The position numbers and the translations under genes were made by a program. DNA of 12,644 bases from Bdellovibrionales bacterium (GTDB lineage Bacteria > Bdellovibrionota > Bdellovibrionia > Bdellovibrionales > UBA1609), in contig JBFWVI010000029.1 in assembly GCA_050246815.1 (NCBI GenBank), positions 28,679-41,322 on the forward strand, read 5' to 3'. The notes beneath the pieces are model-generated. The model had not been told where the DNA came from, ran no database searches, and was given only the letters and a program-made list of their open reading frames with translations. Every line of letters starts with the position of its first letter. Position 1 is the stretch's first letter. Of the stretch, positions 1 to 12,644 are shown piece after piece.

Positions 1-1525
1 CAACCTGCTCTTCAGAGCGTCGTTTGATTTTTTCGAATTCCAGCTTTTTGCTTTGAACGTAAACGTCGGCCTCTTCCTCTTTAAGAGTTTTGATTTTTTC
101 TGCTTCTTGCAGTTTTTGTTTGGCCATGATTTCGGCCTCTTTGATTTTTTCATCAAAGATGGATTGGGCTTCGCGCTCTTTTAATTCACGCAAGTAAGCG
201 ACTTCATCATCAAAGACCTTACGTTTTTGCTGCATCAGTCGCTGTTGATTTTCAAGCTCTGTGTTCAATTGATCTAATTCGCCGCGCATGCGCTTCAAGT
301 TGGTGGCCATCTCGCCTTCAAGCTTTTTCTTCTCGTGGCGGGTTTCACGTAAGGATTCTTCGGCCTTGCTGATTAAAGTGTCGCGTTCAATTTGCGCCTT
401 TTCGCGCGCTTGAAGCATCATTTCTTCGCTCTTAAGAGCGCCCTCATTTAAAGCTTCAGCCAAGGATTCTTTGGCGCGCTTCTCAATTTCAATTTGAGCG
501 TCTTTTTTGATTTTTTCGGCTTCATTCAGACTGTCTAGCTTAAGTTGATCGGCTTCCTTGTGGGCATCGGCGCGCAGTTGGCGGGCATCACTTTCGGCCA
601 AGGCGCGGGCATTGCTGACGTCGTCTTCGGTCTCTTTTTTGATGCGTTCAGACTCTCGGATCGCGGCTGCGATCAGACTTTCGGCTTCTTGTTTTGATTT
701 GACCACCAATTCGCGACCCTGAATCTTGGCGACTTCGGTGATTTCATTGATGCGGTTTTTTGCTTCTTGCAGCATTTCCTGGCAAATTTTGTCGGATTGT
801 TGAATGACTTCATCGGCCTGCGATTGTGCGGCCGCAACTTGACTGTGACGGTATTCCTCGGCTTGTTCGCGCACTTCTGCGGCGCGCTGATGAATTGCAG
901 CCACGGCTTTTTTGGCGTCTTCTTCGGCGGCCGATATGATTTGGGTGGCCGTGGAGCGAGCTTGTTCGATGGTTTGAGCGGAAAGCTCTTTGGCACGGGT
1001 CAAGACCAGATCTCGCTCGCCAGATATGTTTTGTTCAACCGTGCGCGCGCGGTCTTCGGCGGACTTGATGATGTTGTCGTGGATGTCTTTGCCCAACTTC
1101 ACAAGGCGCTGCGCTTCCGCATGGGCTCCATGCAGCATATCGATGATCGAATCGCGCTCTTCATCGGGCAGGTCACTTTGATCAACCAGGTTTTCAGCGA
1201 AAACCTTTTCAATCGCGGTGAACGTCAACTCGACACGCGAATTGCCGAGACGGACCACGTCCTTCGGCTCAACCGGGATGGATTTGCGCGCTTCAAGCCT
1301 TACGCCATTGACGTAAGTGCCATTTGCCGAGCCCTGATCTTCGACCATGACTTTGCCGTTTTTGTTACGGACCATCACATGGGCACGGCTAATATTGTTA
1401 TCACTAAAAGCGATGGCCGCTTCCAAAGAGCGGCCTATCGTGAACGGATTGTCGTCCACGATTTTTCTTACCATTCCGGCTTCGGTCTGAATTGTGACTA
1501 AGAAACAACTCAGAGGTCTAGCCAT
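1..1525 (-). CDS. FHA-domain protein with long coiled coil (3' end outside the window, at least 508 aa; absent from the ORF track)
   Basis: Manual translation from ATG at 1525 (GGGGGG SD upstream, 19 nt after the previous stop): MARPLSCFLVTIQTEAGMVRKIVDDNPFTIGRSLEAAIAFSDNNISRAHVMVRNKNGKVMVEDQGSANGTYVNGVRL..., which carries the FHA motifs IGR, SRxH and D-x-x-S-x-NGT-x-VNG. It continues as A/E/K/Q/R-rich helical sequence and the same frame is open at the left edge (VQSKKLEFEKIKRRSEEQV). Confidence 0.92.
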   Translation of the reverse strand, partial: MARPLSCFLVTIQTEAGMVRKIVDDNPFTIGRSLEAAIAFSDNNISRAHVMVRNKNGKVMVEDQGSANGTYVNGVRLEARKSIPVEPKDVVRLGNSRVELTFTAIEKVFAENLVDQSDLPDEERDSIIDMLHGAHAEAQRLVKLGKDIHDNIIKSAEDRARTVEQNISGERDLVLTRAKELSAQTIEQARSTATQIISAAEEDAKKAVAAIHQRAAEVREQAEEYRHSQVAAAQSQADEVIQQSDKICQEMLQEAKNRINEITEVAKIQGRELVVKSKQEAESLIAAAIRESERIKKETEDDVSNARALAESDARQLRADAHKEADQLKLDSLNEAEKIKKDAQIEIEKRAKESLAEALNEGALKSEEMMLQAREKAQIERDTLISKAEESLRETRHEKKKLEGEMATNLKRMRGELDQLNTELENQQRLMQQKRKVFDDEVAYLRELKEREAQSIFDEKIKEAEIMAKQKLQEAEKIKTLKEEEADVYVQSKKLEFEKIKRRSEEQV

Positions 1526-1544
1526 TCATTTAGCCCCCCGAGTT

Positions 1545-2486
1545 TTAAGAGGTTTTCACCTTTCTTAAGGTGTCCATGTCACGCGAACGCTGATTCTTCG
1601 AAATCTCGATGCTCAAGGCCTCTTCAGCCAAAGCATCCACCGGATCGCGGTGTTCGTCGAATGCGCGTTCGCTCATGGGGTAGTCGTTGTTGTCACTGCG
1701 GTACCAAAGCAAGTCCAGGGCGCTTTCGAAGCGGTCGATCATGGACACATAGGCGCGCTCCGGAGAAAAGCTGGTGTTCCACAAGTGAAGAGCAAGAGAA
1801 AAGGCGATACCCACGATCGAAGACGCCATGGCGTAGGCGATTTCGTGTAAGAACGAATCCATCACGTTTTTGGTGGTTTCAAGATCTGACAGGTTCATAC
1901 CACCCAAAGCAGTCAAACCGCCTTTGATACCAAGGAACGTTCCCAAAATACCCGCCACGACAAAAAGTCCAGGCAAGATATTGAGGATGTCGTTCAATCC
2001 GCCAACGGGGATGATGCCAAAAACACGGTTGAAGCAAGGGTTGTGGTGGAAAGTGGCTTTGGTGATCTGAAGCAGTTTGGGTGTTTCATTGGTCCACTTC
2101 AAAAACTTCAGTTGTTTCAAGATGTCTTTCACCAACCAGGCGCAGCCTTGTTTGACCAAAAATATGCGGTCAGAAAGTCGCATCACACGGTCGGGTTTTT
2201 TGCTGCTGTCGCGGTCGCGGGCTTCGAAGGCCTCGTAGTAAGTACGCTCCAACATGCGTTTGGCCAGCACATAGAATGAAACGTTGCTGATTTTACCAGG
2301 AACTTCAGCATCCACGTAGCGGTTCACGCGGGTTTCGAACTCGCGCGAGAACCATTCGTGGCGGCGAACCGTCAGGTACACCAGCCCGCGCAAGGAGGCG
2401 CCGAGCACAAACACGACAGCCATTGCGTAGGGCAGCAGGTAAATAAACCAGTGTATAAGCTGCTCTGTTGATGTGATCTCTTTCAT
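1545..2486 (-). CDS. MotA/TolQ/ExbB-family (ZorA-like) ion-channel subunit, 313 aa
   Basis: One N-terminal hydrophobic segment plus the hairpin LPGLFVVAGILGTFLGIKGGL...IAYAMASSIVGIAFSLALHLW. The P-x6-G-I-x-GTF-x-G pattern is typical of ZorA/MotA/ExbB. GGGGGA SD, 9 nt after the stop of the MotB-like gene. Confidence 0.85.
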   Translation of the reverse strand: MKEITSTEQLIHWFIYLLPYAMAVVFVLGASLRGLVYLTVRRHEWFSREFETRVNRYVDAEVPGKISNVSFYVLAKRMLERTYYEAFEARDRDSSKKPDRVMRLSDRIFLVKQGCAWLVKDILKQLKFLKWTNETPKLLQITKATFHHNPCFNRVFGIIPVGGLNDILNILPGLFVVAGILGTFLGIKGGLTALGGMNLSDLETTKNVMDSFLHEIAYAMASSIVGIAFSLALHLWNTSFSPERAYVSMIDRFESALDLLWYRSDNNDYPMSERAFDEHRDPVDALAEEALSIEISKNQRSRDMDTLRKVKTS

Positions 2487-2495
2487 AGATCCCCC

Positions 2496-4190
2496 TTACT
2501 TCTTTCCGTCCATGCTGAAACGGATAATCACGCGTTGTGCCCGTTTGCAGTCGTTGAGTTTACAAAAATCCGCTTTAGATGCGACACCGCGTGAGTTTTT
2601 AATCACTTCCAAAAAGCTACGGCCCGAGACTTTCATCATCGGCAAAAGTTCTTTTTGGTGTTCAAAGGTCATTTCGCGTTCGTCTAATATATGGTTGAAG
2701 ATCGACTTGGCGCGACGATAGCTAAGATCCATATTGTATTTGATGGCTTCTTTGTCTTCTGGCTTGTTTGAGTTGGGGTTCACATACCGACCTTTGTAGG
2801 TGGGTGACGCAAAACCAACAACTTCAACCGACGAGATTTTCTCGGCGACTTTGGGGTTGCCAAATAAGGATTTGGAGTAGGCGGGGACCGCTTTTTCCAG
2901 AACGTCTTTCATGGCCTGTTTCAGCGCGGCCGAGTCGTTATCGAAGTACGCTTGTCCGAAGTCGATCAACACTTCGCCGGTCTGCATATCGATATCTGCC
3001 TTCACGCCAGCGGCATCGAAGCCCTTTTTGATTTCGCGAGCCACAGCACGGCGCGCGTCCATTTCGGCGCGAGCGACAGCCAATTGACTTTCTTTGTCGC
3101 GCAACTGTCCTTCGGTGCTTTTCAGCTGACCGCTTAAGCCCGCCACCTTGCCACTCAAACCTTCAACTTGACCACTCAGGCCCGCCACCTTTTCGGCCAG
3201 TTCGCGCTCCTTTGCGGCAGCGGCTGCGCGGAAGGCGGCTTCACGACGGCCTCGTTCGGCGGCGCCGACACGTTCGCGTTTGAGCTCGGCATCGAAGGCC
3301 GCCCGTTCTTTGGCCGCTTGAGCTGCGTATTCGCCTTTTAAATTACTAATTTTGGATTGAAGATCACGTGCTTCGCTTTCTTTTTGAGCCAGCTGTCCTT
3401 GGGTACTTTGCAACTGACCCGACAGCGAACTGATGCGATTTTGCGTGTCGCTCAATTGCTTTTGATAGTTTTCGTTGGCATCGCGAAGGGCGTCGACTTT
3501 GTTTTCGCTTTCTTCCTTTAACTGAGCCATTTTCTTTTCATAGCTCTTGGCCGACATCTTATTGCGTTTATAGGCTTTTTTCAGCTCGGCCAGTTTTTTG
3601 TCCAGGGCTTTATTGGTTTCAGCGATTTTGCGTTCACCCTCTTCGATTTTCTTTTGTTTTTGATGGGCTTCTTGCTCAAGCTCTGTGATCTGCTGGTCTT
3701 GTGTTTCGATCTCTTCGTCTTGATCGACGATGATATCGTCACGATTGGTGATTTTGGTCTTGGCGACTTTATTGGCATTGATCACATTGCGGATCATCTG
3801 TTGGTATTTATTCAGAGCTTTTTCTTTCATTTCATTCTGAATGGCGGTGTTGCGCAGGCGCTCTTTTTCGTCCTTGGCCTCTTCTTGCAACAGGCTGAGC
3901 TTATCCATCAGCTCTTGGTATTCGTCCATTTCGCTTTTGGGGGCCTGGGTTTGCAGGTAGTCTTTTTTGATGGACTCGTACATTCTCAATTGATTCTGTA
4001 GGTCTTGGACCTGCATGTTGAGCTTTTGGTTTTCTATTTGATTTTTGATACCATCGGTTCCGGTTCGAAGGCTGGCTGTTACGTAGAGCAGCAAAAAGAT
4101 CGTCGACAGACCCAAGAACAAGTCCGAATACGACGTCCAAAAGCTTTCGTTACCGCCATGATCTTTGTGCTTCTGATAATTAAAAGCCAT
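2496..4190 (-). CDS. MotB/ZorB-like protein: N-terminal TM helix with conserved Asp, long coiled coil, C-terminal OmpA-like domain, 564 aa
   Basis: ESFWTSYSDLFLGLSTIFLLLYV (W-x-x-Y-x-D motif, Asp23), about 340 aa of coiled-coil-like sequence, then YFDNDSAALK...VEVVGFAS...NMDLSYRRAKSI...RVIIRF (OmpA_C-like). Confidence 0.87.
   Translation of the reverse strand: MAFNYQKHKDHGGNESFWTSYSDLFLGLSTIFLLLYVTASLRTGTDGIKNQIENQKLNMQVQDLQNQLRMYESIKKDYLQTQAPKSEMDEYQELMDKLSLLQEEAKDEKERLRNTAIQNEMKEKALNKYQQMIRNVINANKVAKTKITNRDDIIVDQDEEIETQDQQITELEQEAHQKQKKIEEGERKIAETNKALDKKLAELKKAYKRNKMSAKSYEKKMAQLKEESENKVDALRDANENYQKQLSDTQNRISSLSGQLQSTQGQLAQKESEARDLQSKISNLKGEYAAQAAKERAAFDAELKRERVGAAERGRREAAFRAAAAAKERELAEKVAGLSGQVEGLSGKVAGLSGQLKSTEGQLRDKESQLAVARAEMDARRAVAREIKKGFDAAGVKADIDMQTGEVLIDFGQAYFDNDSAALKQAMKDVLEKAVPAYSKSLFGNPKVAEKISSVEVVGFASPTYKGRYVNPNSNKPEDKEAIKYNMDLSYRRAKSIFNHILDEREMTFEHQKELLPMMKVSGRSFLEVIKNSRGVASKADFCKLNDCKRAQRVIIRFSMDGKK
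3126..3191 (-). repeat. Intragenic 21-bp (heptad) tandem repeat, about 3 copies
   Basis: Encodes K-VAGLSGQ-VEGLSGK-VAGLSGQ. AAGGTGGCGGGC recurs 42 nt apart. Confidence 0.8.
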
Positions 4191-4359
4191 AGCATTGCCC
4201 GCTTTTTAAGTTACTCTTCGTCATATGTATGTATCGAGATTCAGGACGAGATAATTAAGTCGAGGCCCTTGAATTTGCGGTAAATTATTCGAACGCGAGT
4301 TCCAGAACCAGACCAAAGGTGGTAGTCTGGGCTGTACCAAGGGCTGGGAGTGGTGCGTA

Positions 4360-6822: not shown

Positions 6823-7260
6823 GTGAATCCGACAATCCGCTACTATCTGGGCGAGGTTTTGGGTTTGGAATTGGTACCACGCGAAGCGGTACAAAAAGCA
6901 TCGACACAGCCCAAAGTCCAGTCACAGGCTCTGGCCATCTTGTGTGGTCACACCCTTAATGAACCTGAAAAGGTCCTTCTTAAAAAGATGATGCAGGCGA
7001 TTGGGGTCGACGACTATGTGGTTCGCGATGTGCCGGCCACTGGTGAGGGCATTGGCTTGGTTTTTGGCCATGCTTCGGCCGAGTCCCTGGGACTTAAAGA
7101 GCTTGGCGCCGTGATCGAGATTGATGGTCGCCGCTGGTTAAGGACCTATTCGCTGGGTGACATGTTGAATGGCAGCGACGGAGAAATTCAATCTCGCAAA
7201 CGTGTCGCCTGGGCGCATCTGCAAACCATTAAGAATTGGCTGAAAGAGAGCCAGCATTGA
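6823..7260 (+). CDS. Hypothetical protein resembling a degenerate uracil-DNA-glycosylase-like / DNA polymerase III psi-like fold, 145 aa
   Basis: GTG start with AAGGGGGG SD. The motifs LLKKMMQAIG, LVFG..A..LG, RTYSLGDML and KRVAWAHL parallel the C-terminal part of family-4 UDGs and psi-like proteins. The UDG catalytic motifs are absent. Confidence 0.65.
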   Translation: MNPTIRYYLGEVLGLELVPREAVQKASTQPKVQSQALAILCGHTLNEPEKVLLKKMMQAIGVDDYVVRDVPATGEGIGLVFGHASAESLGLKELGAVIEIDGRRWLRTYSLGDMLNGSDGEIQSRKRVAWAHLQTIKNWLKESQH

Positions 7261-8441
7261 GGGTCGGCGTTTGTTTGCTTGTGCTGGCCTTGATTTGCCC
7301 GGCCACCCTGGCCGAGACCATTCGTGTTCGCTTGCGAAAAACCTACGGCAAAATTGAATTGGCCGGCTTCGGTGTGAATGTCGGTTTGCAACAGCAGATG
7401 ATCGTGCTCGCCGGGATGCCACAAATGGGTCGACTCGAAGTGAGACTGCAGACTAGACGTGGACGATGGCCCGTTTGGCATGTGCGCCGCGAGGGCGAAA
7501 AAAAATCCACTCATCTGGCTGGGGAAAAGTTATTCATCGAAGGTCAAACCTTGCAAGTGGGGCTTCGGCCCGTGCCCAACACGTTAGAGTTAGTGGCCGC
7601 GGAAAACGGTCGTGTGGATGTGATCGCGGCCCTGGATCTGGAAAAGTACTTAACTGGAGTGCTGCCTTCTGAAATGCCCGCTCATTGGCCCATGGAAGCT
7701 TTAAAGGCCCAAGCCGTTGCCTCACGTTCATACGCTTTGGCATTGATGCAACAGCGACGTGATCAGGCCTATCACTTAGAGTCCACCGTTTTTGATCAAG
7801 TCTTTGATCTGCAAAATCACACTGGCGCAAGCGAAGAAGTTCGAAAAAAAGTGGCCTTAGCAGTGCGAGAAACCGCCGGGCAAGTTTTGTTGGATGAACG
7901 TGGGCGGGTGGTGAAGGCCCACTATCATGCCGACTGCGGTGGGCGCACAGAGACCGCACGCAACGTCTGGGGTGAAAGTGTGCAAGAGACCGGTGTCGTG
8001 AAGGATGCCCTTTGCCCCTTAAGCCCCTTGGCGCAGTGGCAGCACCATTTAACCAAACAAGAGCTGCGTGAGGCCCTGGCGCCTCATTTTGGGATTGGTC
8101 CGGGCGTGTCTTTGCTGTCAGTAGCCATGGCGGGGCGCACGCCTTCTGGGCGCGTGGTAAGCGTGGACGTGGTTTTTTCAGACCGCCAGCCACGACGGCT
8201 CAGCTCCCATGACTTTCGCCGTCTATTGGGCTTTAGCAGCCTTAAAAGCACGAACTTTAGTTTTCTGTGGCAGGGAGAAAAACTGGTTGTGGAAGGGCGC
8301 GGCCATGGCCATGGAGTGGGGATGTGCCAGTACGGAGCCCGCCAACTGGCGACCAGGGGCCTTAATTACCGCCAAATTGTTGCAACATATTATCCAAATG
8401 TGAAGATCGGCAGCTCGGGAACCAGCCGCCCGGTGCTTTAG
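7257..8441 (+). CDS. SpoIID/LytB-domain lytic transglycosylase with signal peptide, about 394 aa
   Basis: LEKYLTGVLPSEMPAHWPMEALKAQAVASRSYA (catalytic Glu region), YHADCGGRTE and GHGHGVGMCQYGA...IVATYYP. The start is reassigned to TTG at 7257, which overlaps the upstream TGA (TTGA), has an AAAGAGAG SD and gives a signal peptide ending ATLA|ETI. Confidence 0.93.
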   Translation: MRVGVCLLVLALICPATLAETIRVRLRKTYGKIELAGFGVNVGLQQQMIVLAGMPQMGRLEVRLQTRRGRWPVWHVRREGEKKSTHLAGEKLFIEGQTLQVGLRPVPNTLELVAAENGRVDVIAALDLEKYLTGVLPSEMPAHWPMEALKAQAVASRSYALALMQQRRDQAYHLESTVFDQVFDLQNHTGASEEVRKKVALAVRETAGQVLLDERGRVVKAHYHADCGGRTETARNVWGESVQETGVVKDALCPLSPLAQWQHHLTKQELREALAPHFGIGPGVSLLSVAMAGRTPSGRVVSVDVVFSDRQPRRLSSHDFRRLLGFSSLKSTNFSFLWQGEKLVVEGRGHGHGVGMCQYGARQLATRGLNYRQIVATYYPNVKIGSSGTSRPVL

Positions 8442-8828: not shown

Positions 8829-8883
8829 ATTGTAGTCTTTCGAGAGAGGGCCAACCCAAATGAAGTTGGCAGAGGGTAAGAAG

Positions 8884-9621
8884 ATGAAGAACCTCAAACT
8901 GATTTTTCTGGTGGCGACTCTGGCGATGACCGTCAGCTGCGCCATGGAAAGTAACAAAAGCCAAACCAACGTTCCGACGTTGAGTGTTCCAACCGACGGC
9001 AGTCCTTATGTTCCGCCGGTCACTGGACCTGGTTATAACCCCGGTACACAGTATGGTGGTTCGGCTCCGCTGACGATTGAAAGTGTGCCGCGCATGTCGC
9101 AGTACACGGGGCGTTCAATGAACAACCCGCAAAACATCGTGGTCAATTTGAACATGGTCAAAACAAGCGGCGGGACTTTTGGTGGTACCGTGACAATCAC
9201 CTACACCGAAGCTGGCTATCCTTATGTTGGTTACTTTACGGCGGGCAACTCAGCCGAGGCCACCAAGTTTAATCGCAGCTTCAGCTATGGCGGCAAAACC
9301 GTATGGCACGGCGTATTTGAAGACTATATCGGCGGCTTAGTGGTGGTGATCGATGAAATCGTGGACCTTGGCGATGGTCAGGGTGCACAAGACACCGTCA
9401 GTGGCTCGATTTACTTTAAGAACTTCGGTTTGACCTATGCTCCACATCCGCCCACCTACTGCTGGTTTGCGTATGCGGGACCCTACGACTGCCGCCCCTG
9501 GCCGGAGGGCAAGAGCATGAACACTTACGCCAACAGCATTCCGACCAATACGGGCTACTTGAAGCTTGGAACCTTCACGGGATTGAGCATCAAGAAGGCG
9601 TTTAATAACGAAACGCTTTAA
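8884..9621 (+). CDS. Hypothetical lipoprotein, about 245 aa
   Basis: The likely start is ATG at 8884 (alternative 8860). Signal peptide II MKNLKLIFLVATLAMTVS|C19, a P/G/T-rich linker, then a beta-rich-looking domain with a Cys pair (CWFAYAGPYDC). Confidence 0.85.
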   Translation: MKNLKLIFLVATLAMTVSCAMESNKSQTNVPTLSVPTDGSPYVPPVTGPGYNPGTQYGGSAPLTIESVPRMSQYTGRSMNNPQNIVVNLNMVKTSGGTFGGTVTITYTEAGYPYVGYFTAGNSAEATKFNRSFSYGGKTVWHGVFEDYIGGLVVVIDEIVDLGDGQGAQDTVSGSIYFKNFGLTYAPHPPTYCWFAYAGPYDCRPWPEGKSMNTYANSIPTNTGYLKLGTFTGLSIKKAFNNETL

Positions 9622-9636
9622 AATAAAGGACGCGCG

Positions 9637-10296
9637 ATGAAAACCTGGAATCAAAAACTGATGATCATGGCCGCCACGGTCTTGATGTTTTCATCCGTGG
9701 GCTGTTCTAATCAATGGCGCGAAGCCGATTTGGGCATGGACGGCTCAGATGTCCTGGAGATCTTGAATCAGCTCGAAGACGACGCCACCATCAGCGGTAC
9801 TAGCAGTCAACAAGTTCAAACTTTCTTCGCGCTTAAAAATAACCCCAATTCCAGCATCTATTACGCCGATGGCTATTCAGATCATCAAGGCGCCTTAGGT
9901 CCTTTGGTGAGTGTGTTTTCAGTGGTGCGCTACGAATTTGTTGGGGCCGAGCTGGCCGGAATGACTTATCATGACCTATCCGAGGTTCGCATTGCGTTTT
10001 TAGATCTGCCCACCGAGTCTGGCCACCAATGTGCTTTGATGGTGGACGTGAAAGTGATTCCGCTTGATCAATACGTGACCAGTTTTTTTGAATGCACTTC
10101 GGTTGAAGTGGGCGGCGGTGAATTTGTGGCCGTGCTTCAAAATGCCGAGGGTTCGCAAATTGCGCTGCGCAGCTTTGATGTCACTCAAAATGGCGATTTG
10201 AAGGGTGTCATCCAATTGCAGGTCAGTGACTTCGACGCCTTCGGTAATGAACAGCCCAATGGCAAGTTTTCGACCCTTGTTGGCTTTGGCCCCTAA
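9637..10296 (+). CDS. Hypothetical lipoprotein, 219 aa
   Basis: AAAGGA SD, 15 nt after the previous stop. Signal peptide II ...LMFSSVG|C23. The acidic mature part has two further Cys. Confidence 0.85.
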   Translation: MKTWNQKLMIMAATVLMFSSVGCSNQWREADLGMDGSDVLEILNQLEDDATISGTSSQQVQTFFALKNNPNSSIYYADGYSDHQGALGPLVSVFSVVRYEFVGAELAGMTYHDLSEVRIAFLDLPTESGHQCALMVDVKVIPLDQYVTSFFECTSVEVGGGEFVAVLQNAEGSQIALRSFDVTQNGDLKGVIQLQVSDFDAFGNEQPNGKFSTLVGFGP

Positions 10297-10361: not shown

Positions 10362-11240
10362 ATGGTCCTAAAGCTTTGGGTTGAATTTTTTGATGAATTG
10401 CAAAATGTGCGGGGGCGTTCGCCAAATACGGTGATGGCCTATCGCCGCGATCTGGAGCTCTTTGCCGAGTACCGCGAAAAGCACAGCGATCTGAAGCCTT
10501 TTTATGAGTATATGAAAAAGCGGGGTTTAAACCCGCGTTCCCAAGCCCGGGTGATCTCTAGCGTACGCACTTATTTTCGCTACTTGGAGAGCCGAGGCGA
10601 AAAAGCAGAGGAGCTACGCGAGTTGAAACAGCCGCGCGTGAAAACCAAACTGCCCAAGGCCCTGACCGCCGATGACTTTCGCCGCTTGCTGGACGCCAGT
10701 GTGGTCGAAAACGAATATCGCGCAGCCCGCAATCAGCTGACACTGTTGTTATTGTTTGGTCTTGGCTGTCGGGTCAGCGAATTGATCCAGCTGAATCTGC
10801 AAGACTTCAATGAAATCGAGAATTGGCTCACCGTCACGGGCAAAGGCAATAAACAGCGTCTTTTGCCCCTGACCACACGCTTGGTTGGCGATCTGAAATC
10901 TTATTTGATCCGCGTGCGACCGCAGCTTTTAAAAGACACCACGCCCTCGTTGCTGGTGAATGACCGCGGGCATCGTCCTTCACGGGTCGACATCTGGCGT
11001 TGGCTGGCGGCATGGTCCAAAAAAGCCGGCTTCGCCGAGCCCGTTGGGCCCCATCAATTTCGTCATGGTTGCGCCACTTCGCTGCTTGAAAACGGCGCTG
11101 ACCTGCGCACCATTCAGGCCTTGCTCGGGCATGCCAGCATTCAAACAACACAAATCTACACCACGGTTTCAGGCAACAAGTTGCGCACCGAGGTCGATGA
11201 GCACCATCCACTTTCGGGGCAAAAGCCCATCGACAACTAG
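10362..11240 (+). CDS. xerD: Tyrosine recombinase, XerC/XerD family (XerD-like)
   Basis: N-terminal SPNTVMAYRRDL. Catalytic residues in GCRVSEL (R), GKGNKQR (K), HQFRH (HxxR) and GADLRTIQALLGHASIQTTQIYT (H, Y). Whether it is XerD or XerC is not certain. Confidence 0.85.
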   Translation: MVLKLWVEFFDELQNVRGRSPNTVMAYRRDLELFAEYREKHSDLKPFYEYMKKRGLNPRSQARVISSVRTYFRYLESRGEKAEELRELKQPRVKTKLPKALTADDFRRLLDASVVENEYRAARNQLTLLLLFGLGCRVSELIQLNLQDFNEIENWLTVTGKGNKQRLLPLTTRLVGDLKSYLIRVRPQLLKDTTPSLLVNDRGHRPSRVDIWRWLAAWSKKAGFAEPVGPHQFRHGCATSLLENGADLRTIQALLGHASIQTTQIYTTVSGNKLRTEVDEHHPLSGQKPIDN

Positions 11241-11352
11241 AGCCCCATCCGAACCCTTGAAAATCGGGCTATGAATGGAGGTGATGTCGGGTTATGAACA
11301 GTTACGCGGGATTATGTTTCCATTACCACCCAAAAATCACCTATTTTAAAAA

Positions 11353-11586
11353 CTAAGCGGCTTTTAGCTTTTTAAGACCATCAGCAATTAATAACCGCAT
11401 CAAGACCTGATAGGGAATTCCCTTGGCCTCAGCGATCTCTTTAAGTTCTTTAAGCATCTCTTCTTCCAAAGCGATACTTGTAGGTTTACGACGCGCCCCC
11501 TTAAGACGGCTTAAACCAGCGATGATCTCTTTAGTATTAAACTCAATACGATCATAAGCTTTTAATCGTTTTACTGATTTCTTCAT
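11353..11586 (-). CDS. Antitoxin, BrnA/CopG-like ribbon-helix-helix, about 77 aa
   Basis: ATG at 11586 with a GAGGT SD. The C-terminal KPTSIALEEEMLKELKEIAEAKGIPYQVLMRLLIADGL matches the CopG/BrnA antitoxin pattern. It overlaps the toxin gene by 35 nt. Confidence 0.88.
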   Translation of the reverse strand: MKKSVKRLKAYDRIEFNTKEIIAGLSRLKGARRKPTSIALEEEMLKELKEIAEAKGIPYQVLMRLLIADGLKKLKAA

Positions 11587-11905
11587 ATAAACCTCGTTCT
11601 TTTTTGCTAGCCGTACGCCCACTGATGGGACGAACTCGACCATCTCTTAAAGTGAAAACCACAGATAACATTCTTCCTGAATCCGTTGGGCCCACCAGAC
11701 AAAGCCGCTCTTCATCAACAGCCGGAGTAACTTGATGCCCCAATGGAACAGCCATTTTCATTTCAAACACAGCTTCAATTTCTTCTAAACCAACATCATG
11801 CTTTTTTGCACTTTTCTGACTATTGCCTGAGTCCCATTCAAAATCGAATTTTTCAGTTTGCTGGTACCAATAAGCTAGCCAAAGAAGAAATTTAAACTGT
11901 GCCAC
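11552..11905 (-). CDS. brnT: BrnT-family ribonuclease toxin, about 117 aa
   Basis: FEWDSGNSQKSAKKHDV..EEIEAVF...EERLCLVG...LSVVFTLRDGRVRPISGRTASKKERGLYE is the BrnT pattern. GTG at 11905 is preferred as the start because the ORF-track TTG (11941) is the -35 box. Confidence 0.9.
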   Translation of the reverse strand: MAQFKFLLWLAYWYQQTEKFDFEWDSGNSQKSAKKHDVGLEEIEAVFEMKMAVPLGHQVTPAVDEERLCLVGPTDSGRMLSVVFTLRDGRVRPISGRTASKKERGLYEEISKTIKSL

Positions 11906-11912
11906 ATCTGTT

Positions 11913-11941
11913 ACACTATAGAACACTATACTAAATGTCAA
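11913..11941 (-). promoter_or_regulatory. Sigma70 promoter of the toxin-antitoxin operon with an overlapping direct-repeat operator
   Basis: TTGACA (11941-11936)-N17-TAGTGT (11918-11913). TATAGTGT occurs twice with a 10-bp period (11930-11923 and 11920-11913). Confidence 0.7.
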
Positions 11942-12031
11942 TTTAATTTAAGAAACTTAAATAGAAGTATCTCAAAATTGCTAACTTTTCTAAACGGCAG
12001 ATCGTTTAAAAGGTAGTGGTTACTAACCGCA

Positions 12032-12064
12032 GAAAAAGCCCACCAATTTCAAATAAGGTGGGCT
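12032..12064 (-). terminator. Rho-independent terminator
   Basis: 8-bp stem AGCCCACC/GGTGGGCT with a 12-nt loop, followed by TTTTC on the minus strand, 26 nt downstream of the stop at 12091. Confidence 0.8.
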
Positions 12065-12090
12065 AATATGGCTAGGTTTAAACAGCAAGC

Positions 12091-12644
12091 TTATTGCCAT
12101 GTTTGCATATTCGCTTGTAAGATCCTAACGATCTTCCATACCTCTTCACTGCAATTGCTGGCAGGAAATTTGGCATAATTCTCGTAGTCATCACGGCCAA
12201 GTGTTGTGAAACCAACACTTAATTTTTCACGGCTGATACCCTTAGGAGTTGTATATGAATTAAATGAGTAATCAAAAAGACTATATTTAAGTACGCTTAC
12301 GAGATCCTTTATTTCACTGTTCGGCCCACCTACTCGTTGAACCCAGGCCGAGCACATTTTCTCGATGTCAGCACTAATTTCTGAATCAACTTCATTTTTG
12401 TATAATACTATCGAATCCACGAAGGGCTCACCTAGGTAAATTGATGAGGGGCCGACAATGTACCTTAGATCGGTTTGATTTTGATCTATATTAATAGACT
12501 GAAACTTATTAGGCGCACCTGACCGGCCGGGAATTTTTGTACCACTACCAATGTTAATAACTAACTGACAAGCTGAATGTTTGCCTCCCTTGTTTCTGGT
12601 GCCTTTGGTGGACGTCCGCCCAATGAAGAGTGGGGTCTGACTTC
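12091..12644 (-). CDS. Hypothetical protein, 5' end outside the window (at least 183 aa)
   Basis: The frame of the 109-aa ORF stays open to the right edge (...SQTPLFIGRTSTKGTRNKGGKHSACQLVINIG...GEPFVDSIVLY...). It is followed by a terminator. Confidence 0.75.
   Translation of the reverse strand, partial: SQTPLFIGRTSTKGTRNKGGKHSACQLVINIGSGTKIPGRSGAPNKFQSINIDQNQTDLRYIVGPSSIYLGEPFVDSIVLYKNEVDSEISADIEKMCSAWVQRVGGPNSEIKDLVSVLKYSLFDYSFNSYTTPKGISREKLSVGFTTLGRDDYENYAKFPASNCSEEVWKIVRILQANMQTWQ

Follow-up and report, generated by a model that had tools for sequence, protein, structure and literature searches.

We analysed a 12,644-nucleotide (nt) stretch of a Bdellovibrionales genome (G000:C29:28679-41322; hereafter the window), at the left end of which three minus-strand genes lie head to tail. 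The first, which we call B, encodes a ZorB-like subunit, the second, A, encodes a ZorA-like subunit, and the third encodes a large coiled-coil protein with a forkhead-associated (FHA) domain. We refer to the three genes together as the module, and its features, in window coordinates, are as follows.

2496..4190, minus strand: B gene, ZorB-like stator subunit of 564 amino acids (aa), recognised by PADLOC and a Protein Data Bank (PDB) profile search, 37-62% identical to 19 relatives
4071..4139, minus strand: transmembrane (TM) helix of B, residues 18-40, with a WxxYxD motif (D23 codon at 4122-4124), aligning with the ZorB TM helix
3039..4043, minus strand: predicted coiled coil of B, residues ~50-385, from weak matches to coiled-coil families rather than a coiled-coil predictor
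2499..3038, minus strand: ZorB-type peptidoglycan-binding domain of B, residues ~385-564, with the PADLOC ZorB1 match over residues 376-537
1545..2486, minus strand: A gene, short-tailed ZorA-like subunit of 313 aa with three predicted TM helices, recognised by PADLOC, NCBIfam, PDB profile search and AlphaFold2 (AF2) fold
1767..1994, minus strand: TM2-TM3 hairpin of A, residues 165-240, with LPG...GIxGTFxG, aligning to ZorA 128-225
2..1525, minus strand: FHA coiled-coil gene, first 508 codons; the gene ends at G000:C29:27244, beyond a gap of 100 N
1244..1441, minus strand: FHA domain, residues 29-94 (Pfam PF00498, E 4.9e-16, 59.3 bits against a cut-off of 20.7)
4232..4258, minus strand: sigma-28 (FliA)-like promoter candidate, TTAAT-N16-TCGATA, ending 41 nt upstream of the B start codon

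Between the stop codon of B and the start of A lie 9 nt (GGGGGATCT), and the 19 nt between the A stop and the start of the FHA gene include GGGGGG. An earlier interpretation made from the letters of the window without database searches (the sequence-only reading) had described three co-oriented genes with G-rich gaps of 9 and 19 nt and a composition like that of core genes. Both descriptions were borne out, with a guanine-cytosine (GC) content of 0.48-0.52 over window positions 1-4190 against 0.507 genome-wide. The 100-N run lies directly left of window base 1, so that the FHA gene is open at the window edge. Window positions 1-127 are identical to the 127 nt on the far side of this run, which indicates that the gap is a scaffolding artefact and that the FHA gene continues leftwards. 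The overlapping contig ends (L001 14453-14806; G000:C29:28452-28805) were left unmerged and split the gene, and would yield two truncated FHA proteins in gene callers. The two pieces, of 508 aa and 444 aa (P0001), have 42 residues in common and make up a complete protein of ~910 aa; we studied them as separate pieces, together with full-length orthologues.

We found that A resembled ZorA most closely in model, profile and fold searches. It matched 19 PADLOC ZorA models, with ZorA1 the best (E 9.6e-10), and it reached E-values of 1e-9 to 6e-5 with five NCBIfam ZorA models (ZorA_2, E 1.1e-9), every one under its curated cut-off. The window's own A protein carries a precomputed assignment to PF28082, named 'ZorA-like_t1' in the Atlas, and Pfam MotA_ExbB gave only E 0.14 (12.4 bits, cut-off 22.9). 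A profile of A returned 8 PDB sequences at E<=1, the six best being ZorA or ZorA-family chains, with MotA, ExbB and TolQ all absent at that threshold. The AF2 model (predicted local distance difference test, pLDDT, 78.8) shows TM1, a helical cytoplasmic domain, the TM2-TM3 hairpin and ~74 residues after TM3; Foldseek placed ZorA 8qyk/8qyd first among its matches (E 7e-4, TM-score 0.43-0.49), with TolQ and ExbB next. The hairpin reads L171-P-G-LFVVA-G-I-L-G-T183-F-L-G186, and L171, P172, G179, G182, T183, F184 and G186 are invariant in 20 sequences.

Orthologues of A are uniformly short, at 306-331 aa in the same 20 sequences. Longer variants of 409-626 aa do exist; the 14 scanned contained no Pfam domain, the four that were read had acidic or Pro-rich low-complexity tails, and nothing intermediate, be it a ZorA-like tail or a fusion to an FHA domain, was found among them. 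The source genome has ten canonical MotA_ExbB genes elsewhere, and this is its only ZorA-like locus. In another member of the phylum, the first 243 residues of a 654-aa protein (L129 615-2579) could be aligned with the A profile (hhalign probability 97.7%), and the rest forms a long extension; the protein may be a genuine ZorA with a long tail.

B begins its sole hydrophobic helix with W18-T-S-Y21-S-D23. A profile of 20 B orthologues ranked ZorB first in the PDB (8vvi_A, E 2e-7; 8qyd_F, E 2e-6) and aligned the TM helix with the ZorB helix bearing Asp26 of 8qyd_F, and the N-terminus matched MotB_plug below the Pfam cut-off (E 0.013). The C-terminal 180 residues match PADLOC ZorB1 (E 1.6e-27) and ZorB2 (E 5.1e-16). 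The sequence-only reading had assigned an OmpA-like domain to B; Pfam OmpA gave no match to B even at E<=1, and the domain is OmpA-like only by way of its likeness to ZorB. W18, D23, N486, L489, S490, R493, C543 and C548 are invariant among the 20 orthologues, and Y21 and Y485 nearly so. The WxxYxD of B and the LPGxxxxxGIxGTFxG of A, both named in the sequence-only reading, are present exactly. Y485-N486-x-x-L489-x-x-x-R493 repeats the pattern of EcZorB Tyr151, Asn152, Leu155 and Arg159, mutants of which are described as having abolished defence and reduced peptidoglycan binding (PMC11946911). The region between helix and domain matches only the crescentin rod, SMC and CpoB, all weakly (Pfam, NCBIfam). 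Residues 41-160 are conserved and the remainder of the coiled coil varies in length in a 20-sequence alignment; this middle is the least conserved part of B and can be short, the whole B of L032 having 476 aa.

The third protein begins with the FHA domain; a coiled coil of ~650 aa comes next, then a single TM helix and a helical end domain of ~150 aa. The FHA domain also matches Pfam Yop-YscD_cpl (E 2.9e-11), and the protein matches NCBIfam FhaB/FipA under the cut-off (E 1.8e-13) and is weakly like Scy and DivIVA/Wag31 (NCBIfam); outside the FHA domain no Pfam family was matched. GR and SRxH motifs are present in 20/20 orthologues, and the NG motif lacks its Asn in some. The FHA fold includes the Arg, Ser and His that bind phosphothreonine, and phosphopeptide reading is predicted from this; the source genome has five Ser/Thr kinase (Pkinase) genes. 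A single hydrophobic stretch lies ~150-240 residues from the C-terminus in 20/20 orthologues; in the source genome it lies ~180 aa from the C-terminus and is preceded by the basic cluster RKRKRSERW. Over the 20 orthologues, Lys and Arg sum to 68 in the 12 residues before this stretch and to 31 after it, which suggests that the N-terminus is inside and the C-terminus outside, and thus a protein whose FHA domain and coiled coil are cytoplasmic and whose end domain lies outside. The basic cluster, hydrophobic stretch and end domain together indicate that the third component is a bitopic membrane protein and not a soluble scaffold. The large FHA coiled-coil protein of the sequence-only reading therefore has the FHA domain claimed for it, and a canonical one, but its gene is incomplete in the window and its TM helix and further domain had gone unseen.

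The model of the end domain has a mean pLDDT of 89.9, with blocks at 95-98. It matched no known fold among solved structures (Foldseek PDB, best E 0.6), and in the VIA wide search its best Z of 8.0 fell on helical bundles, where such scores carry little information. A complex prediction made with 20-row alignments of full-length A, the first 165 residues of B and the TM helix plus end domain of the FHA protein gave a score of 0.02 (mark 0.32), which speaks neither for nor against a complex.

With A as the query, matches were obtained in 25/41 close-relative genomes (G000 included), a count that takes in a 668-aa open reading frame (ORF) that is probably something else (E 9e-4) and one contig-end fragment. 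In 19/19 loci fetched from relatives, B and A are followed in this order by a gene for a protein of 654-1313 aa, and FHA motifs and end domain could be aligned in all 19; neither the FHA part of L021 nor the C-terminal part of L030 had been picked up by tblastn, and clustering had omitted L021 and L025, all of which the alignments recovered. Other neighbours are common to at most 4/19 loci, and uvrC/uvrB are not near the module in relatives. A scan with one genome per species gave 414 relatives of A. We sampled the best 80 of these for synteny, some on the same contigs as L014-L032; all 80 are labelled Bdellovibrionota or come from bins with other labels, and four are Bdellovibrio bacteriovorus strains. 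A was called in 79/80, B was adjacent in 68/69 loci with enough upstream DNA, and the FHA gene was adjacent in 62/62 with enough downstream DNA, six of them overlapping the end of A in the ORF calls. FHA domain and end domain fall within one ORF in 60/62 (exceptions L065 and L098). The three genes are a conserved unit in varying surroundings. Chance juxtaposition, which we considered, is ruled out by the invariant motifs and the gene order kept in relatives.

Across the phylum, the A of the module was found in 120/301 sampled genomes at E<=1e-10, with 30/35 genomes of one family carrying the module. Of 1.84 billion representative proteins, 134 belong to the family at E<=1e-30, and 708 do so at E<=1e-3. 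A identity follows UvrC identity (Spearman 0.58, n=21 relatives; in two relatives A is more similar than expected), and the module therefore appears to have been inherited largely vertically.

In a distant sister clade of three loci (L123 7060-11277, L124 6912-13712, L125 6863-11351), B has 926-1758 aa with a giant coiled coil, A is ~300-323 aa, and a cyclic-nucleotide-binding protein of 154-160 aa replaces the FHA protein (3/3). A cytoplasmic signalling module attached to the B-A pair thus seems to be a recurring theme. The closest relative outside the genus has a fourth co-oriented gene (L014 11824-13512) that overlaps the end of the FHA gene and encodes 563 aa, with an N-terminal domain of the cyclic-nucleotide-binding kind and ~440 other residues that fall in no Pfam family. 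We rejected such a gene as a general fourth member, as it was seen only in L014/L036, which are one genome, and L095 among loci L014-L112.

Several known systems resemble the module in part. The ZorA-ZorB pair (Escherichia coli type I, 8qyd; Shewanella, 8vvn; 8vvi) is the best match of both subunits by hidden Markov model (HMM) and PDB profile and, for A, by fold. B shares with ZorB a single TM helix with a conserved Asp, the Y-N-x-x-L-x-x-x-R motif and Cys residues in the domain, and A shares with ZorA three TM helices and the LPG...GTF hairpin. Canonical Zorya gene orders are given as zorABCD, zorABE and zorFABG; every subtype is said to have a long tail on ZorA, and in ZorB the peptidoglycan-binding domain is joined to the TM helix without a linker (PMC11946911). 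In contrast, the module runs B-A, A has ~74 residues after TM3 where the ZorA tail has several hundred, and ~340 aa separate the TM helix of B from its peptidoglycan-binding domain. There is also no ZorC, ZorD, ZorE, ZorF or ZorG in the module; the third gene instead encodes the FHA-coiled coil-TM protein, and the whole sits amid ordinary genes with largely vertical descent. PADLOC found no Zor effectors in the module's own flanks nor among the 150 scanned of 170 flanking proteins of relatives, where its 15 matches were all to generic domains (e.g. ABC ATPase, cysteine desulfurase, HIT). As far as its sequence goes, the module is by definition not a Zorya system.

The TolQ-TolR-TolA and ExbB-ExbD-TonB systems likewise combine a 5:2 motor with a third protein that has one TM helix and a long helical part, and TolQ and ExbB are the next-best folds of A after ZorA. 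Unlike in TolA and TonB, however, the long part of the module's third protein and its FHA domain are predicted to be cytoplasmic, with only ~150 aa past the TM helix; that helix is not N-terminal as in the TolA/TonB type, and Pfam TonB_C and TolA gave no match to the protein. B further differs from ExbD in having a peptidoglycan-binding domain, a domain that ExbD is not known to have. To MotAB/PomAB the module is linked by the MotB_plug-like N-terminus (below cut-off) and peptidoglycan-binding end of B and by the sigma-28-like promoter candidate, whereas A misses Pfam MotA_ExbB and has three predicted TM helices, not four as in MotA; the module also occurs in two good genomes without a FliG_C match, and ten MotA/ExbB paralogues lie elsewhere in the source genome. 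A cytoplasmic FHA domain on a single TM helix is found in the type III secretion proteins YscD/PrgH (cytoplasmic domain) and in mycobacterial FhaB/FipA, but here ~650 aa of coiled coil lie between FHA domain and TM helix, and the end domain has no solved-fold match; no secretion-system genes were found near the module.

The sequence-only reading had proposed a non-canonical ZorAB- or stator-like envelope motor, with B before A, the coiled coil on B, a short-tailed A, an FHA coiled-coil gene as the third member and no flagellar, TonB or Zorya effector gene in view. HMM searches, PDB profiles, fold, conserved residues and synteny all support this proposal. Among the checks it named, those by HMM, PADLOC and synteny came out in the same direction: ZorA and ZorB are the best HMM and PADLOC matches for the motor pair when set beside MotA_ExbB and OmpA, the FHA domain is confirmed, and synteny held in 19/19 fetched loci and in 60-68 of 62-69 assessable loci of the wider sample. 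Neither TonB/TolA nor flagellar genes were found near the module (Pfam, PADLOC). Beyond that reading, the FHA protein is membrane-anchored, the orthologous operon is attack-phase specific, insertions in this operon leave predation unimpaired in a published screen, and two good genomes hold the module with no FliG found in them. B has one TM helix with a conserved acidic residue and A a conserved Thr/Gly-rich TM hairpin, which are the sequence hallmarks of the 5:2 superfamily.

The orthologues of B, A and the FHA gene in B. bacteriovorus HD100 are Bd1167-1169, and in strain 109J they are EP01_RS15535, EP01_RS15540 and EP01_RS15545. In strain Bd5 (L054) the module is flanked on one side by nitroreductase, Rrf2 and GNAT genes and on the other by two small ORFs, a DUF4423/TIGR02147-type regulator and ftsY, and the annotation tables of HD100 and 109J give the same gene order. 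In the literature searched, to which subscription-only papers and bioRxiv supplements did not belong, we found no functional description of the module. Published expression tables nevertheless cover it. Reads per kilobase per million in attack phase versus 3-h growth phase are listed as 932 versus 35 for Bd1167, 1354 versus 23 for Bd1168 and 527 versus 14 for Bd1169 (Karunker 2013, PMC3627812). This corresponds to attack-phase induction of 26-, 55- and 36-fold, with all three genes flagged 'AP specific' (PMC3627812, Table S1), and one transcription start is mapped for '1167-1168-1169', with the entry 'FliA site? no' (PMC3627812, Table S2). The printed HD100 promoter string occurs letter for letter upstream of B in L072, which ties these tables to the module family by sequence. 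In a further data set, Bd1167 is reported as down-regulated 30 min into predation and is called a crescentin-like candidate, and Bd1168 is listed as unchanged between attack phase and host-independent growth (Lambert 2010, PMC2797640).

The promoter candidate upstream of B in the window resembles the attack-phase (FliA-like) consensus given for Bdellovibrio, TTAAG-N16-CCGATA (Karunker 2013, PMC3627812). We scored 90 regions upstream of B against the enterobacterial sigma-28 consensus and found that 44/90 reached at least 11/16, whereas 100 shuffles averaged 12.5 such regions and never exceeded 20, and the mirrored strand gave 11. The coding strand carried CGATA in 36 regions, the opposite strand in 5. 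The 90 regions come from related genomes and include a few duplicates, and the enrichment is a lead and not a test. FliA is described as driving most attack-phase genes in Bdellovibrio, beyond the flagellar ones (PMC3627812). FliG_C was found in 261/301 genomes of the phylum, and G027 (1 contig, 99% complete) and G257 (97% complete) carry the module with no FliG_C match, which indicates that the module is not an obligatory part of the flagellum.

Insertion data are available from a 109J transposon screen on planktonic and biofilm V. cholerae and E. coli, in which a fitness <0.1 is scored as a defect and >3 as improved (Duncan 2019, PMC6561027). The four values listed are 1.88, 1.88, 1.86 and 1.75 for the B orthologue, 1.74, 1.98, 1.80 and 1.93 for the A orthologue, and 1.81, 1.99, 1.51 and 1.67 for the FHA orthologue (PMC6561027, Data Set S2). 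Unrelated neighbour genes score like the module genes, and flagellar genes score 0.03-0.18 (PMC6561027). With fitness at 1.5-2.0 for all three, the genes appear dispensable for predation and axenic growth under the conditions of the screen. Elsewhere in the same data, three adjacent genes annotated 'FHA domain-containing protein' (EP01_RS14010-14020, the Bd0472 region) have values of 0.002-0.004, among the strongest predation-defective scores; this is a separate locus, unrelated to the neutral scores of the module (PMC6561027).

The reading we favour, in which our confidence is about even, is that the module encodes a ZorAB-lineage motor, predicted to be of 5:2 build, driven by ions and anchored to peptidoglycan, with a phosphothreonine-reading partner. 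It would act as an attack-phase envelope signal transducer that likely relays a signal from the envelope to cytoplasmic phosphothreonine signalling. That the pair belongs to the ZorAB motor lineage is much more secure than its purpose; for the output, we commit to a sensor of envelope state or contact in the free-swimming stage. In such a motor, two B chains would sit inside a ring of five A chains, and the long periplasmic coiled coil would carry B to the cell wall. Ion flow past D23 would turn A around the B fixed to the wall, as in ZorAB, MotAB and TolQR. Through its single TM helix the FHA protein may dock on the rim of the A ring, in the way TolA docks on TolQ and TonB on ExbB, with its bulk directed inward, and could in this way provide in trans the long cytoplasmic coiled coil that a true ZorA has as its tail. 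Its FHA tip would then bind a phosphothreonine-marked partner made by one of the Ser/Thr kinases of the genome.

Several points weigh against this reading. We infer binding among the three proteins, the 5:2 stoichiometry and ion flow alike. A periplasmic coiled coil of ~340 aa, and of up to ~1500 aa in distant homologues, is longer than the periplasm is wide and is implausible as a simple linker. Lys and Arg around the B helix number 18 before and 41 after, so that the MotB topology is not itself favoured. The distribution is patchy, both in the phylum (120/301) and among close relatives (25/41). The HD100 promoter is scored as having no FliA site (PMC3627812), and the sigma-28-like motif of the window may thus not be general. 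Finally, all three orthologues score 1.5-2.0 on both prey in the 109J data, so that no phenotype there backs any role (PMC6561027). Insertions that leave predation unimpaired make a role required by predation unlikely, and a sensor needed for prey entry is unlikely on the same grounds.

The neutral scores would be expected of an anti-phage system in a phage-free screen. The module could be a fourth, effector-less kind of Zorya, whose motor senses phage on free-swimming cells and whose FHA protein recruits or activates remote effectors. The only close relatives of both subunits are ZorA and ZorB of a proven defence system, expression restricted to attack phase fits the sole stage spent outside the prey cell, and the patchy distribution also agrees. 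However, neither a nuclease nor any other effector is in the operon or conserved beside the module, the flanking proteins scanned (150 of 170, with 15 generic PADLOC matches) give no defence-island context, and the long ZorA tail is missing. As a single-copy locus whose A divergence tracks UvrC and which is present in 30/35 genomes of one family, the module fits a lineage gene better than a mobile defence gene, and we consider a defence function unlikely.

By mass, two of the three proteins are mostly coiled coil, and B at 926-1758 aa in the distant clade is more filament-like than linker-like. A structural scaffold, in which the coiled coils of B and the FHA protein tie the inner membrane to the cell wall in the compact attack-phase cell and the motor part serves for anchoring or assembly, would agree with this, with the weak likeness of the FHA protein to Scy and DivIVA/Wag31, and with the designation of Bd1167 as a crescentin-like candidate that goes down on prey entry (Lambert 2010, PMC2797640). 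Yet the ion-pathway Asp and the GTF hairpin are invariant, which a mere anchor would not need, the coiled-coil middle is the least conserved part of B and can be short, and insertions carry no fitness cost; a scaffold is in our view distinctly improbable. We think it more improbable still that the module is a motility accessory, that is, an extra stator, brake or clutch of the flagellum or gliding machinery regulated by phosphorylation or, elsewhere, by cyclic nucleotides. The sigma-28-like motif is enriched across loci (44/90), the operon is attack-phase specific as flagellar genes are, and small nucleotide-binding stator partners are known elsewhere in the form of PilZ proteins (PMC11725899). 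Against this stand G027 and G257 and the unequal spread of FliG_C (261/301) and the module (120/301), the contrast between flagellar genes (0.03-0.18) and module genes (1.5-2.0) in one screen, an A with three predicted TM helices that stays under the Pfam MotA_ExbB cut-off, and the wide use of FliA for attack-phase genes of other kinds.

Other features lie to the right of the module in the window. A gene with a SpoIID domain (7236-8441, with a TTG start as called) overlaps by 25 nt the end of a 145-aa ORF of unknown type (6823-7260), and its start may be mis-called. Two ORFs of 253 and 219 aa lie side by side (8860-10296); their N-termini are hydrophobic and resemble signal or lipoprotein sequences, and neither ORF matched a Pfam or PADLOC family. 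They are followed by a Xer-type tyrosine recombinase gene (10362-11240), a BrnT/BrnA-like toxin-antitoxin pair (11353-11941) and a further ORF of unknown type; from 10362 to 12642 the GC content falls to 0.38-0.44 against 0.51 for the genome, and an integrated element may have its border here, at the end of the contig.

Ion-driven 5:2 motors power flagella, gliding, Ton/Tol transport and Zorya defence, and each new partner has revealed a new use of membrane energy. Here a lineage known until now only in phage defence takes the form of a conserved and strongly attack-phase-specific operon in a predatory phylum. Its domains are redistributed, the coiled coil having shifted from A to B and the third protein and a signalling domain taking the place of nucleases as the output. 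It is possible, although on balance we doubt it, that a ZorAB-type motor has moved from phage defence into core predator biology, its tailless rotor driving a separate, FHA-tipped and membrane-anchored coiled coil, with proton-powered rotation in the envelope read out as, or gated by, phosphothreonine signalling in the hunting cell. If true, this would be a new way to couple a 5:2 motor to cytoplasmic signalling, one in which a sister clade swaps the FHA protein for a cyclic-nucleotide-binding protein. The present annotations, 'microtubule binding protein' and 'large Ala/Glu-rich protein', conceal the nature of the module, which may link to the kinase pathway, still to be found, behind FHA-dependent signalling in Bdellovibrio. 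Bd1167-1169 in B. bacteriovorus offer a genetically tractable case for what ZorAB-type motors sense and how rotation is converted into a signal.

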